Positions 30,039 to 37,473 of a DNA stretch of 64,000 nt are shown piece after piece. Origin of the DNA: Planctomycetota bacterium (GTDB lineage: Bacteria; Planctomycetota; PUPC01; JACPCR01); the NCBI GenBank assembly GCA_016179685.1, contig JACPCR010000064.1:181186-245185 (forward strand). Reading direction: 5' to 3'. The notes beneath the pieces were generated by a model. It had not been told where the DNA came from, ran no database searches, and saw only the letters and a list, made by a program, of their open reading frames with translations. Both the position numbers and the translations under genes were made by a program. Every line of letters starts with the position of its first letter. The first letter of the stretch is position 1.

Positions 30039-31073
30039 ATGAAAAAACCCACGGAAGGTAGAAATCGTCCGCCACAGAAGTACGTCCCCGTCCAGGAGAA
30101 GCGCCTGCTCGCCTTCGCCACCGCCTGTTTCCAGAAGGCGGGGCTGGATGAGCCTCATGCCAGCCTCATCAGCAGGCTGCTGGTGAATTCCGACCTCCGA
30201 GGCGTGCGCTCGCACGGAAGCCAGACGGTCAACGGCTACTGCAGCGGCTTTGAGCAGGGACACCTGAACCCGCGGCCGAATCTGCAAGTGGTCCACGAGA
30301 CTCCGGCAACGGTCGTTCTGGACGGCGACGGCACACTCGGATACCTGCCCATGGTACGGGCGACAGAGCTGGCCATCGCCAAGGCGAAGGAGACCGGGCT
30401 CGGCATGGGGCTGGCCCGGCACATAGGCCACTACGGCTCGGCGGGCCACTACACGCGCCAGTGCATGGAACAGGGGTGCGTCGGCTTCTCGGCCCAGGGA
30501 TACCCGGGAATGGGAAACGCTTCCGAACGGACGCCGAAGCCCTCGATCGGCTCCTTCGGCAACCCGCCTTTTTGCTTCGCCATTCCGTCCGGCCGGGAGC
30601 TGCCCCTGGTCCTGGACGGGGGTACCTATATCCTCGGCCAGGTACAGCACAGTCCCGAATACGTGCAGGAGCTGTTTGAGCGCATCCCGGAGGCCTTCTA
30701 TCGCAGCTTCGGTCTGGCGGCAATTTCAAGCGTTCTGGGGGGCACCCTGGCGGGCATCATGCTCCCGGAGGTGACTGCGAAGGCCAAGCGGTGGCCCGGA
30801 GGCACCCTTGGCGGCATGATCCTGGCCATCCACGTGGATTCGGTGGTTCCGAAGCAGGCGTTCCTGGCGGAGGTGGACAGAATGATCCGGGACCTCCGGA
30901 CGACTCACGAGCCGATGCCGGGGACGGACCGGGCACTGCTGCCGGGTGCGATCGATGAGGAGCGATTGCAACTCTATCGCCGGGAGGGCATCCATTACGG
31001 CGAGATGGAACAGGCCTCAGCCCGCGAGGTGAGCCAGCGGTTGGGCATTCCCCTGCCCTGGGATGGGGCCTGA
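30039..31073 (+). CDS. Ldh_2 family (malate/L-lactate dehydrogenase-type) oxidoreductase
   Basis: ORF 30018..31073 begins at TTG; first ATG at 30039 (MKKPTEG...); LRGVRSHG motif; paralog of 19468..20517. Confidence 0.75.
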   Translation: MKKPTEGRNRPPQKYVPVQEKRLLAFATACFQKAGLDEPHASLISRLLVNSDLRGVRSHGSQTVNGYCSGFEQGHLNPRPNLQVVHETPATVVLDGDGTLGYLPMVRATELAIAKAKETGLGMGLARHIGHYGSAGHYTRQCMEQGCVGFSAQGYPGMGNASERTPKPSIGSFGNPPFCFAIPSGRELPLVLDGGTYILGQVQHSPEYVQELFERIPEAFYRSFGLAAISSVLGGTLAGIMLPEVTAKAKRWPGGTLGGMILAIHVDSVVPKQAFLAEVDRMIRDLRTTHEPMPGTDRALLPGAIDEERLQLYRREGIHYGEMEQASAREVSQRLGIPLPWDGA

Positions 31074-31117
31074 CGCGCCCACACGACGTGTGAGAGACGC
31101 GGGCCTTCGCGCCGAAG

Positions 31118-31753
31118 TCAATCCTTGCGCGCTCCATCACTTTGGGGCGTCTTCTGGGTCTCGGACCAAATTTGTCCGAACAAGTCCCGCACGAACGGAT
31201 TGAGTTGCTGAGCCCATTCAGCCGGCACATGCAGAATCTTTATCAACTCTTGAACATCCGCGAGGTCTTTCCGCCGGCCAGGGGCCATTCCTGAAGCCAA
31301 TTTGAGCTCGACGAGCGAACGCAAGTTGATACATCGGATTCCTTCCATTTCACTTCCAACTTGCTGGGGTGATGGGAAGCAAACCGGTTTCGGTTTGCCA
31401 TCACCCGGAAATTGGCCGCTCACGAGAAACTCGATACGCACGCCGGTTTCTGTATCGCGTAAACTCTTGCTGCCATCGAAAAGTGCGACGTATCCCAGCC
31501 CTTCCAATTGCTGATGAATCTTGTGCAGGCCATCCGGGGTCACCAAAATATCCACGTCCTCCGTAAAGCGGCGATATCCATGGAGAAAAAGCGCCATGCC
31601 GCCAACGAGAACGTAAGGGATATCTAGAGCCTCGAGCCTTTGAGCCAGTCTGCGCAGGGTTTTGTGAACCGCGCTTTCTTTCTCAAAGTGCATACTGCCT
31701 TCCTTCAGAGCCAGTCCCAAGTCATTGTCGAGAAGTTCTTCATAGATGACCAT
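31118..31753 (-). CDS. nucleotidyltransferase-fold protein (minimal NTase-like)
   Basis: 211-aa ORF in a lower-GC stretch; VGGMALFLHGYRRFTEDVDILV fits the G[GS]x9-13DxD nucleotidyltransferase signature. Confidence 0.5.
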   Translation of the reverse strand: MVIYEELLDNDLGLALKEGSMHFEKESAVHKTLRRLAQRLEALDIPYVLVGGMALFLHGYRRFTEDVDILVTPDGLHKIHQQLEGLGYVALFDGSKSLRDTETGVRIEFLVSGQFPGDGKPKPVCFPSPQQVGSEMEGIRCINLRSLVELKLASGMAPGRRKDLADVQELIKILHVPAEWAQQLNPFVRDLFGQIWSETQKTPQSDGARKD

Positions 31754-32076
31754 GTTTCATCTCCCTGTTCATTCTATACGAGGAGAAATCGCGCTTCAAT
31801 TGCCATGTGCCATCCCTTGCGGATATAAACGCCGTGATTCCCCAGGCCGAGGACGACAGCACACGGGGCGTCTTGGCCTTGTTTCATGGCGGCATCCCAC
31901 TCGATCCCAAAACGCGGGCGCCCATTCTGAAGACGATAACGAGGACGACGAGGACGCTAACACACGGTAGCCTGGAACTAGTCTCCATTGTCACAGTTTT
32001 CAACCGTTTAGACGCCTAGAATCGCCGCCTGGGAAGGTTAGAATAGCTCGAAATCATCCAGAGGGGGGACAACACC

Positions 32077-32949
32077 ATGCATCTGACTCCTGCACAGATC
32101 GAGTCGTTCCATGAAAAAGGCTATCTGGCCGTCGAGGGCATACTGGGTCCCGAAGACCTTCAGCCCGTCGAGGACGAATATGCGCGGCTCATCGACGAGC
32201 GGGCGCGGCAGCTTCAGGCCCAGGGCAAGCTGAAGGACCTGCATGCCGATCAGCCCTTTCTGCGCCGATTGGCTCTCCTGGCCGCCCAGGCCCCGGAGAT
32301 CGCCGGCAACCTGGACATCATGCAGGCGCGGGGGCCGGCGACCTTCAACTTTCTGAAGAATCCGAAAATCCTGGACCTGGCCGAATCGTTCGTCGGCGGC
32401 GAGATCGTCTGCAATCCGATCCAGCACATCCGGGCCACCATGCCGCACCGGCAGACAGGCACGCAGCCGACGCCGTGGCATCAGGACATCGGGGTGTGCT
32501 GGCCGGACGTCGATCCCTACTTCATGCTGACGGTCTGGATACCGCTGGTGGACGCGACCGTCGAAAACGGCTGCCTGGAGGTGTTGCCGGACAGCCACCG
32601 GCACGGCCTGAAGCGACACGCTTCGACCCCGCATGGGCTCGAGGTGCCCGCGGAGGAGCGCCCGGCGATCGAACCCATGCCGATCCCGGTGCACCGCGGG
32701 GGCGCGATCCTGTTTCACAACTACACGCTGCATCATGCCCGGCCGAACGTTTCGGACCAGGTGCGCTGGAGCTTCGATCTGCGATACCACGACGTGTATC
32801 AACCGACGGGCAGGCCGTTTTATCCCGCGTTCTTATTCCGCAGTAGGCAGAGACCGGCGGCCCTCGAGACGGATTACGGCGCGTGGTGCCGGCGCTGGGA
32901 ATTTGCCCTCGAAGCCTCCAAGGGGGCCAAGTTCTACCGATGGTCTTAG
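32077..32949 (+). CDS. phytanoyl-CoA dioxygenase (PhyH) family protein
   Basis: 290-aa ORF; ATG preceded by GAGGGGGG; WHQD...D and HxxxxN motifs. Confidence 0.75.
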   Translation: MHLTPAQIESFHEKGYLAVEGILGPEDLQPVEDEYARLIDERARQLQAQGKLKDLHADQPFLRRLALLAAQAPEIAGNLDIMQARGPATFNFLKNPKILDLAESFVGGEIVCNPIQHIRATMPHRQTGTQPTPWHQDIGVCWPDVDPYFMLTVWIPLVDATVENGCLEVLPDSHRHGLKRHASTPHGLEVPAEERPAIEPMPIPVHRGGAILFHNYTLHHARPNVSDQVRWSFDLRYHDVYQPTGRPFYPAFLFRSRQRPAALETDYGAWCRRWEFALEASKGAKFYRWS

Positions 32950-36489: not shown

Positions 36490-36555
36490 TGGTCTCGAAT
36501 TTCAATGACGAGTCCAGAGAGCGCCTGGTCGCTGGACCCCCTGGCCGTGGGCAAC

Positions 36556-36588
36556 GAGGTTCAGAAGTGCTGCCGCACTTCTGAAACG
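36556..36588. repeat. REP-like palindrome, core CAGAAGTGC-TGCC-GCACTTCTG
   Basis: gaGGTTCAGAAGTGC tgcc GCACTTCTGAAACgg, ~20 bp upstream of 36607 start. Confidence 0.7.
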
Positions 36589-36606
36589 GAAAAATAGGAG
36601 CGCACC

Positions 36607-37473
36607 ATGCCGGTGGTCTGGAAATGGGCCGAGGGGCCCGACGGCTTCAAACTGCCCTGGGCCGAGCTGAATGGCGCGCGGCCGGGTCCCACCTGGCTCT
36701 TCACGGCCGGGGTACACGGTGACGAATACGAGGGGCCCGAGGCGGTCCGGCGTGCCGTCGCCGAGCTGATCGCGGGTGACTTCGCAGGCCGTGTACTGGC
36801 CCTGCCCGTGTCCAACCCCATGGCCTACGCCCGCGGCCTTCGCTGCACGCCGGAGGACCAGGGAAATTTGAACCGGTTCTTCCCCGGCGATCCTCGAGGG
36901 ACGTTTACGGCCCGGTGGGCCGACTGGCTCTGGCGGAATTTCATGGCTCGTGCCGACCGCATCGTGGACCTGCACGCCGGAGGGGCCACCTGGGAGTTCG
37001 ACTCCCTCGCCGGTCATTACACGGACGAGGATGAGCCGCTGGCCGCGGTCTTCGGACTCATCCTCTGGCGCGTCCCGGACATCCCCGGCGTGCTGAGCCG
37101 CGAGTTCCGCCGGCTTCGCGGACCCGCCGTCGGCGTGGAGCTCGGATGCGGAGGCGTCCGCCATGAGGCTCTCACCGGCCTCGCCCACCGCGCCCTGGTC
37201 CGGCTGGCACGAGGCGAAACGTCCTCGGCCCCAGGCCCCGTTTATCTCAGCCACAACGTGTTCAGCCCGGCGGAGGGTGAATGGACCCCGGCCTGCCGGC
37301 TGCGGCAGACGCTGCGCGCCGGCGACCTGCTCGGTCACGTGACGGATTGGACCAGCTCTTCAACACGGGAAATCCGCAGCCCCGTCGCAGGGCAGGTCCT
37401 CGCCGTCCGCAGGTTGGTCTCGCTCCAGTCGGGCGACCTGATGGCCATGATGGGCGAGCCGGTCCGGTCTTAA
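36607..37473 (+). CDS. succinylglutamate desuccinylase/aspartoacylase (AstE/AspA) family zinc deacylase
   Basis: 288-aa ORF; HGDEYEG zinc-binding motif near N-terminus. Confidence 0.75.
   Translation: MPVVWKWAEGPDGFKLPWAELNGARPGPTWLFTAGVHGDEYEGPEAVRRAVAELIAGDFAGRVLALPVSNPMAYARGLRCTPEDQGNLNRFFPGDPRGTFTARWADWLWRNFMARADRIVDLHAGGATWEFDSLAGHYTDEDEPLAAVFGLILWRVPDIPGVLSREFRRLRGPAVGVELGCGGVRHEALTGLAHRALVRLARGETSSAPGPVYLSHNVFSPAEGEWTPACRLRQTLRAGDLLGHVTDWTSSSTREIRSPVAGQVLAVRRLVSLQSGDLMAMMGEPVRS

Follow-up and report, generated by a model that had tools for sequence, protein, structure and literature searches.

Positions 30039-37473 of a 64,000-nucleotide stretch of Planctomycetota DNA (contig JACPCR010000064.1; the whole stretch is called the window below) carry one gene of the Ldh_2 oxidoreductase family and one of the PhyH oxygenase family, close to genes for a creatininase-family amidohydrolase and an AstE/AspA-family deacylase. 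A further Ldh_2 gene and three further PhyH genes lie elsewhere in the window, and palindromes resembling repetitive extragenic palindromes (REPs) stand near several of these genes. The locus raises two questions, namely whether the interval is a second Ldh_2/PhyH unit and whether the palindromes regulate its genes together. In our analysis, the interval is probably a remodelled part of an ordinary metabolic neighbourhood, in which two ancestral gene pairs were split by acquired genes, and in which the palindromes are lineage-specific REP-like hairpins and not operators.

Two enzyme pairs and the genes between them

Pfam confirmed the PhyH genes at 3665, 4551, 21917 and 32077, the Ldh_2 genes at 19468 and 30039, and the creatininase-family and AstE/AspA genes, all as a preliminary description of the sequence had named them. 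That description had also seated the second Ldh_2 and PhyH genes next to the creatininase-family and deacylase genes; all four genes are real, but they are not contiguous, as two intervening genes had been overlooked. The interval and its downstream edge read as follows.

30039-31073, + strand: Ldh_2_30039, the second Ldh_2 gene, 344 aa (PF02615, 191.5 bits)
31118-31753, - strand: solo nucleotidyltransferase, NTP_transf_5/AbiEii-like, 211 aa, between Ldh_2_30039 and PhyH_32077
32077-32949, + strand: PhyH_32077, Fe(II)/2-oxoglutarate oxygenase, 290 aa (PF05721, 103 bits)
33116 (the real start)-33949, + strand: creatininase-family amidohydrolase, 277 aa (PF02633, 211.6 bits)
33950-34311, + strand: structured spacer of 362 nt upstream of the caspase gene (folding z-score -2.9)
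34312-36489, + strand: secreted caspase (Peptidase_C14) and FGE-sulfatase-fold protein, 725 aa, between the creatininase-family and AstE genes (Pfam)
36607-37473, + strand: AstE/AspA-family zinc deacylase of a DoeB-like subgroup, 288 aa (PF24827, 87.7 bits, cut-off 25)
37545-37751, - strand: HAD hydrolase remnant, the C-terminal 69 aa (tblastn 54% identity, E 2e-18)

The gene order in relatives separates old neighbours from new ones. In the closest relative (L020, Logan SRR22387802), a GFO_IDH_MocA gene is followed on one strand by Ldh_2 (79% identical) and PhyH (79%), with a gap of 149 nt and without the nucleotidyltransferase between the two orthologues; Ldh_2 orthologues further removed (67-68%) lack a PhyH gene in their vicinity. 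The creatininase-family gene is directly followed by the AstE gene in four of six close relatives (L011, L012, L013 and L016), the two genes being about 0-66 nt apart, and in all four the caspase and FGE gene is absent between them. Since the pairs are directly adjacent in relatives (one for Ldh_2 and PhyH, four for creatininase and AstE), we read both extra genes as insertions. By parsimony, the ancestral state would be two tight pairs, and the nucleotidyltransferase and the caspase and FGE gene would be lineage-specific insertions, the HAD region having been deleted. The relatives' spacers are too diverged to place empty sites or insertion boundaries, whether of the palindromes, the nucleotidyltransferase or the caspase gene.

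The window would accordingly hold a rearranged piece of the chromosome of an uncultured Planctomycetota bacterium with two ancestrally linked enzyme pairs. In the first, an Ldh_2-type NAD(P)H oxidoreductase gene followed by a PhyH-type Fe/2-oxoglutarate oxygenase gene would have been split by the solo nucleotidyltransferase. In the second, a creatininase-fold amidohydrolase gene followed by a DoeB-like zinc deacylase gene would have been split by the secreted caspase and FGE-fold protein, and the HAD gene downstream of it would have decayed. At the position of the HAD remnant, L011 has an intact HAD gene together with a CDP-alcohol phosphatidyltransferase gene, the latter missing from the window; downstream of this point, synteny with L011 is retained (SDR, HEAT, glycosyltransferase 4).

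The window has a G+C content of about 62%, and the G+C content at third codon positions (GC3) is near 0.8 in most genes. In the nucleotidyltransferase gene it is 0.57 against about 0.8 in the neighbours. The matches of this protein are weak (NTP_transf_5, 33 bits against 31.2; AbiEii, 28.3 against 22.5; PADLOC AbiEii, E 5e-5); a promoter-like site lies at 31799-31771, and no open reading frame (ORF) of at least 80 aa that could be an AbiEi-type partner was found upstream on the minus strand. The caspase and FGE gene has a GC3 of 0.71 against about 0.8. Its caspase domain scored 55 bits (cut-off 21.4), and the translation contains a signal peptide and the motifs SGHG and DSCFSG, which would represent the catalytic His/Cys dyad. 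Its FGE part is nearest to non-FGE members, Treponema denticola variable protein 1 and PvdO among them. Such a fusion is common: both halves have matches at 50-59% identity in many representative proteins of 570-800 aa. The structured spacer before this gene has a 15-16-nt inverted repeat (GGGCTGAAGGCTGAAG / CTTCAGCCTTCAGCC) around about 100 nt and a separate hairpin at 33985-34023, and could be a scar or the end of the element that delivered the caspase gene.

The palindrome family

A covariance model found ten strong copies of one palindrome family in the 64 kb, at 43-74 bits, and only two or three marginal candidates (11120, 57978, 62357). The strong copies are listed below.

3549-3594: copy A, 71 nt upstream of PhyH_3665 (61.4 bits)
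6868-6917: copy B, perfect 23-bp stem, downstream of the HSP20 gene (64.1 bits)
20586-20637: copy A, perfect 24-bp stem, abutting the stop of gene 20638-21780 and upstream of Ldh_2_19468 (69.4 bits, -48.6 kcal/mol)
21866-21917: copy C, degenerate, abutting the stop codon of PhyH_21917 (56.8 bits)
22885-22934: copy A, upstream of PhyH_21917 (74.3 bits)
22929-22982: copy D, abutting the stop of gene 22984-23949 (65.3 bits)
33045-33086: copy E, 19-bp stem, between PhyH_32077 and the creatininase-family gene, 30 nt before the start of the latter (58.9 bits, -37.7 kcal/mol)
36560-36585: copy F, 11-bp stem, 22 nt upstream of the AstE start, just before AGGAG (43.5 bits)
52479-52530: copy G, degenerate, upstream of a fused 2-oxoacid dehydrogenase E1 gene (52.2 bits)
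55217-55268: copy A, 21-bp stem, immediately upstream of a DUF58/VWA gene of a BatA/VWA operon (68.8 bits)

The core AAGTGC-N4-GCACTT matched 10 times in the window (1.8 expected) and the 21-nt arm pattern 8 times (0 expected). The longest sub-family reads CGAGTAGACGAGYTSGCAAGTGC-N4-GCACTTGCSARCTCGTCTACTCG; the other copies have the apical 8-11 nt in common, with outer arms that are different yet self-complementary, and within the family conservation is highest in the apical core. In the ten-copy alignment, 87% of the stem cells were paired and 14 of 23 pairs were changed on both sides, exceeding every control. For intact copies the folding energy lies between -37 and -49 kcal/mol. Copies A (22885-22934) and D (22929-22982) are adjacent with inverted loop orientation, between gene 22984-23949 and PhyH_21917. 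The PhyH_21917 ORF opens with codons made of palindrome sequence, so that the gene probably starts at 22843 or 22762 instead. No Rfam family reached its gathering threshold in any part of the window.

Other hairpins were also observed. A second, different one (20543-20585, AAATCAGTTCAGAAATGGT...ACCGTTTCTGAATCGATTT) stands beside copy A in the spacer upstream of Ldh_2_19468, and its TTCAGAA motif recurs in copies D and F. The relatives have long perfect hairpins with stems of 19-23 bp (L011 6551-6593 and 7208-7259; L020 about 2768-2815), whose sequences have no relation to the window family and which overlap or abut the stop codons of neighbouring genes. The clade may habitually carry long 3' hairpins.

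The distribution of the copies and the extent of their similarity favour a REP-like spread. All nine palindrome-bearing sites lie between co-directional genes, as do 24 of the 32 spacers of at least 60 nt, and three of the nine flank unrelated genes (HSP20, the fused 2-oxoacid dehydrogenase E1 and DUF58). No copy was found in 156 kb of the relatives' loci, where the orthologous spacers between Ldh_2 and PhyH, upstream of the creatininase-family gene and between this gene and AstE are free of the family next to proteins that are 79-94% identical. Upstream of PhyH_3665 and PhyH_21917, similarity is limited to a 47-nt palindrome (43/47), without flanking homology; since it stops at the palindrome edges, the two copies point to independent insertions. 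The arm patterns met only chance, non-palindromic matches in collections of genomes, metagenomes and viral contigs without the source genome. For ORFs across the palindromes, an alignment of three translations (stop-free or partly so) used as query gave 295 word candidates and none with E<=10, such peptides being too short for a protein database of that size.

Like REPs, the palindromes are extragenic, palindromic and repeated above chance, at a local density of 10 copies per 64 kb. They are not short stem-loops with a GTAG tag left unpaired at one end: GTAG or GTAC occurs in six of the ten copies, on both arms, base-paired within the stem. Since the GTAG is paired, the stems are of unusual length and no RAYT was found among the window ORFs scanned, we call the family REP-like and not a tested member of the REPs; it is a new species-specific family of the REP-like class.

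In our proposal, the palindromes would have spread into co-directional spacers next to genes of many kinds. When transcribed they would form very stable stem-loops, which might act at most as generic 3' stabilisers of mRNA, weak terminators or processing sites, and they would not be operators of a PhyH/Ldh_2 regulon. By analogy with REPs, such a putative generic RNA role (3' stabiliser or weak terminator) is plausible. The preliminary description had named REP-like selfish spread as the simpler account, and our data favour it over an operator because of the unrelated flanks, the absence in relatives, the similarity that ends at the palindrome edges, the long variable arms and the mixed orientation.

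Several points weigh against this proposal. A REP-associated transposase (RAYT/Y1, PF01797-type) found no match among the window ORFs scanned with Pfam. The survey of Di Nocera et al. (2013; PMC3733652), which reported GTAG-tagged REP families in the PVC (Planctomycetes-Verrucomicrobia-Chlamydiae) bacteria and Rhodopirellula baltica, describes stems of 6-13 bp with the GTAG tag unpaired at one end, whereas here the stems reach 19-24 bp and GTAG pairs with CTAC inside a symmetric stem. Our literature search on RAYT in Planctomycetes returned nothing beyond this survey. Six of the nine palindrome-bearing spacers touch a PhyH, Ldh_2, creatininase-family or AstE gene, a nominal enrichment, and in the relatives, too, stop codons are abutted by long hairpins, though of unrelated sequence. 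The pattern may in part reflect a clade-wide functional need for 3' hairpins and not selfish spread.

That last point leads to the alternative that survives best, which we nevertheless consider unlikely: the hairpins would be selected RNA elements (terminators without a U-tract, 3' mRNA stabilisers or RNase III sites), with a core shared through convergence or gene conversion. Three copies lie within 0-1 nt of a stop codon (20586-20637, 21866-21917 and 22929-22982), all sites are co-directional, the folding energies are very low, unrelated long hairpins occur at equivalent gene ends in relatives, and copy E is terminator-like on the plus strand with a T-rich tail after it. Against this reading, the counts of G-U against A-C mismatches, which should tell the transcribed strand, are 13 and 7, with no clear strand bias, and the loop orientation relative to transcription is the same in five copies and opposite in five. 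The near-identical sequences of 47-50 nt at unrelated loci are also hard to reconcile with convergence. The same organism has a canonical U-tract terminator at 29366-29398, so hairpin-only terminators are not obligatory.

Much less probable is that a dimeric transcription factor uses AAGTGC-N4-GCACTT as its operator and co-regulates the PhyH, Ldh_2, creatininase-like and AstE-like genes, the shared regulatory role that the preliminary description had thought possible. In its favour, such genes adjoin six of the nine palindrome-bearing spacers, a start codon follows most copies at a distance of 20-100 nt, and the apical core is the best conserved part. The perfect arms of 19-24 bp exceed what an operator needs, and the outer arms vary between copies while remaining self-complementary; HSP20, E1 and DUF58 genes are flanked too, the orthologous spacers of relatives are without copies, and no copy lies in a divergent, promoter-only spacer. 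The palindromes noted earlier just upstream of several of the named genes are real, and their number is far above chance, but none precedes Ldh_2_30039, PhyH_32077 or PhyH_4551, and the interval 30039-37473 has only copies E and F, which are short or atypical. Counted by spacers, palindromes adjoin the named families in 6 of 11-13 spacers against 3 of 13-23 others (p 0.02-0.2, depending on the minimum spacer length, on excluding the foreign island described below and on including weak copies). This enrichment is weak, post hoc and not robust, and we do not regard it as evidence because we settled on these families only once the pattern was known.

The remaining question is whether the interval repeats the first set, whose genes are listed here with the other two PhyH genes.

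3665-4492, + strand: PhyH_3665 (Pfam), 39% identical to PhyH_21917
4551-5675, - strand: PhyH_4551 (Pfam)
19468-20517, - strand: Ldh_2_19468, the first Ldh_2 gene, 349 aa (PF02615, 364.3 bits)
21917-22915, - strand: PhyH_21917 (Pfam)

On the minus strand the first set runs PhyH, a protein of no known family, Ldh_2; the second runs Ldh_2, the nucleotidyltransferase on the opposite strand, PhyH. Identity is 21-39% among the PhyH pairs, 26% between the two Ldh_2 proteins and 23% between the PhyH proteins of the two sets; for comparison, the two class-III aminotransferases of the window are 30% identical and the two SDRs 31%. The term "second Ldh_2/PhyH unit" in the preliminary description holds insofar as the adjacency of Ldh_2 and PhyH is ancestral, as L020 shows, but the two sets are not copies of each other. 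With paralogues this old (23-26% identity), a recent duplication is excluded, and the remaining PhyH and Ldh_2 genes of the window would be ancient paralogues and not copies of the unit. A recent segmental duplication carrying the palindromes along, to which the presence of Ldh_2 and PhyH within a few kb in each set might point, is thus hardly conceivable, as gene order and intervening genes also differ, no DNA similarity extends beyond the palindromes, and the orthologous pair is already present in a relative. The first set (19468-23949, - strand) itself forms an operon-like string with a palindrome at each junction; its proteins 20638-21780 (380 aa) and 22984-23949 (321 aa) have no Pfam or NCBIfam match.

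Enzyme identities and candidate routes

The four PhyH proteins scored 103, 69, 88 and 55 bits against PF05721 (gathering cut-off 22). In the alignment all four have the iron-binding HxD...H triad (WHRD, WHQD, WHSD and WHQD, with the distal His) and so look hydroxylase-type and not halogenase-type; the halogenase type (HxA/G) was ruled out by the HxD kept in every paralogue. PhyH_32077 has the intact WHQD...H triad, and its top solved relative is PHYHD1 (E 4e-15). Both Ldh_2 proteins lie above the PF02615 gathering cut-off of 38.8 bits, and Ldh_2_30039 is 100% identical to NCBI MBI2192375.1 ("MAG: Ldh family oxidoreductase [Planctomycetes bacterium]", MAG standing for metagenome-assembled genome). 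It stays under every NCBIfam equivalog cut-off (best 115.6 against 500), and Ldh_2_19468 falls below that of PRK10098 (315 against 336); neither can be assigned to the sulfolactate, ureidoglycolate or 3-dehydro-L-gulonate dehydrogenase equivalog. None of the eight named enzyme proteins (PhyH, Ldh_2, creatininase-family, AstE) attains an NCBIfam equivalog cut-off.

The creatininase-family protein scored 118.5 bits against the TIGR04448 equivalog cut-off of 235. Aligned with 1j2t/1q3k, its Glu, His, Asp and His ligand positions match, and the Glu122 position is Ser; we take the ligand numbering (Glu34, His36, Asp45, His120, Glu122) to be that of Pseudomonas putida creatininase. As GHGSN stands where the P. 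putida enzyme has GHYEN, one metal ligand is replaced, and judged by its score and residues the protein is not a bona fide creatininase. Its orthologues occur in Planctomycetota MAGs at 77-94% identity, and homologues at 77-79% carry annotations as proteins of such MAGs. The AstE protein, whose start is preceded by an AGGAG ribosome-binding site, has as its top solved relative DoeB 6twl (N-acetyl-2,4-diaminobutyrate deacetylase, E 3e-29). It retains HGDEYEG, NLNRxFPG and DxHxGG (DLHAGG) as well as the HxxE...H zinc site, and scored 98.3 bits, under the DoeB TIGR02994 cut-off of 402.7.

A recurrent Planctomycetota module was observed around the second pair in relatives, in which an MR_MLE racemase-family gene, the creatininase-family gene and the AstE/AspA gene follow one another with one to three PhyH genes.

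L012, 1053-9109: module with an additional GNAT acetyltransferase
L013, 7831-11726: module
L015, 8639-11673: module
L016, 8796-12547: module with an additional Amidohydro_2

The MR_MLE gene precedes the creatininase-family gene in these four loci, a PhyH gene lies within one or two genes of the latter in L012, L013 and L015, and no Ldh_2 gene was found in any creatininase neighbourhood examined in relatives. The module appears uncharacterised, and literature searches for the creatininase, AstE and MR_MLE combination found none.

Candidate roles can be proposed for these enzymes. An Ldh_2/PhyH pair would couple 2-oxoglutarate-dependent hydroxylation or demethylation to an NAD(P)H-dependent step that reduces a keto acid or cyclic imine. 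The creatininase-fold and DoeB-like pair would resemble the DoeA/DoeB logic of ectoine breakdown, with a different hydrolase fold, and substrates of the N-acyl amino acid or dipeptide type would fit the frequent MR_MLE partner. Genes for an aldehyde dehydrogenase and a class-III aminotransferase are found 5-10 kb away, at 24843-27742.

One could join all four enzymes into a single pathway that breaks down a cyclic or N-acylated solute of the amino-acid type, for example an ectoine-like one, an idea that we find doubtful. PhyH would hydroxylate, Ldh_2 would reduce an imine or keto acid, the creatininase-fold enzyme would open the ring and the DoeB-like enzyme would deacylate, by analogy with DoeA/DoeB. 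It is consistent with an AstE-like protein closest to DoeB that keeps the zinc and substrate motifs, with the conserved creatininase-AstE pair that often has MR_MLE and PhyH upstream, with the nearby aldehyde dehydrogenase and class-III aminotransferase, which are of the family types of DoeC and DoeD, and with the adjacent Ldh_2 and PhyH in the closest relative. Yet no protein reaches an equivalog cut-off, Ldh_2 is absent from all examined creatininase neighbourhoods of relatives, the window has no MR_MLE gene, the genes are split by unrelated insertions without a linked transporter or regulator, and no paper was found that links these families.

Still less likely, in our estimate, is a hitherto undescribed hydrolase-deacylase pathway of this clade, made up of the creatininase-fold and DoeB-like enzymes, with MR_MLE and PhyH in relatives and with hairpins in the spacers tuning relative expression. 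If it held, the place of the M24 ectoine hydrolase would be taken by an enzyme of the creatininase fold, and the pathway would act on a cyclic or N-acylated solute of the amino-acid type.

Surroundings and comparison with known systems

The rest of the gene content is presumably Planctomycetota-like (xylose-isomerase-like TIM barrel, GFO_IDH_MocA, HEAT/PBS-lyase repeats, FGE-fold proteins, BatA/VWA). Before the interval, 28056-29342 (+ strand) encodes a secreted, repetitive Thr/Ser/Gly-rich protein without a family match, which explains the strong AT skew of this segment, and is followed by the intrinsic terminator at 29366-29398 (11-bp GC stem, T9 tail). The 696-nt spacer upstream of Ldh_2_30039 contains an exact 28-nt direct repeat, GGTCGATCCTCGATCGCAAGGGGCGGGC, at 29544-29571 and 29605-29632, with a 33-nt spacer that is itself a hairpin; the dimensions are CRISPR-like, only two copies exist, and the window has no cas genes. 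At the end of the L020 contig, after PhyH (about 3800-3894), lies an apparent 3' half of a reverse-strand tRNA-Leu(UAA) with T-arm and long variable arm, for which ARAGORN made no call, the gene being truncated. A lower-GC island (40800-52350, 0.56-0.58) contains decayed defence genes and no palindrome copy.

42639-44681: type III restriction enzyme
45900-48527: type III methylase, with a split C-terminal fragment at 45319-46026
48547-49650: protein with HTH and M78 peptidase domains, PD-Lambda-2_B-like
50222-51292: DrmD-like SNF2 fragment
51685-52350: T2SSE ATPase gene, of which only the C-terminal half is left

As it stands, the finding is of little weight, namely species-specific REP-like repeats in an uncultured planctomycete and an apparent gene unit that comes down to two conserved enzyme pairs broken by insertions. 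Of modest value is the creatininase-like and DoeB-like pair, often with MR_MLE and PhyH, as an uncharacterised Planctomycetota module. The long hairpins abutting stop codons, which seem common in the clade, bear on how transcripts end or are stabilised, a subject poorly known in this phylum.

Among known systems, DoeA/DoeB (EutD/EutE) is matched by a gene for a putative ring-opening amidohydrolase directly followed by that for a DoeB-type deacylase with HGDEYEG, NLNRxFPG and DxHxGG. The two systems differ in that the hydrolase here has the creatininase fold and DoeA the M24 fold, that the deacylase scores 98 bits against the 402.7-bit cut-off, and that no ectoine transporter or EnuR-type regulator is linked. 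Creatinine amidohydrolase of P. putida (PDB 1j2t) shares with our protein the Pfam family and the motifs EQHG.H....D and H...E..S, while the latter scores below the cut-off (118 against 235), has the Glu122 ligand replaced, and has genomic partners (MR_MLE, AstE, PhyH) that differ from those of the creatinine pathway. The caspase and FGE protein is like the known bacterial fusions of a caspase homologue with the FGE-sulfatase fold, having a C14 domain with the putative His/Cys dyad motifs, and its sole peculiarity is its position between the creatininase-family and AstE genes. The palindromes, finally, resemble REP/GTAG repeats, REP doublets forming hairpins (REPINs) and bacterial interspersed mosaic elements (BIMEs) (PMC3733652) as short multicopy extragenic palindromes in co-directional spacers or at gene 3' ends. 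As in REPs, there are sub-families with compensated stem changes, adjacent inverted copies, GTAG/GTAC near the stem base and restriction to one species; unlike in REPs, it is the apical core and not the tag that is most conserved in the family of this window.

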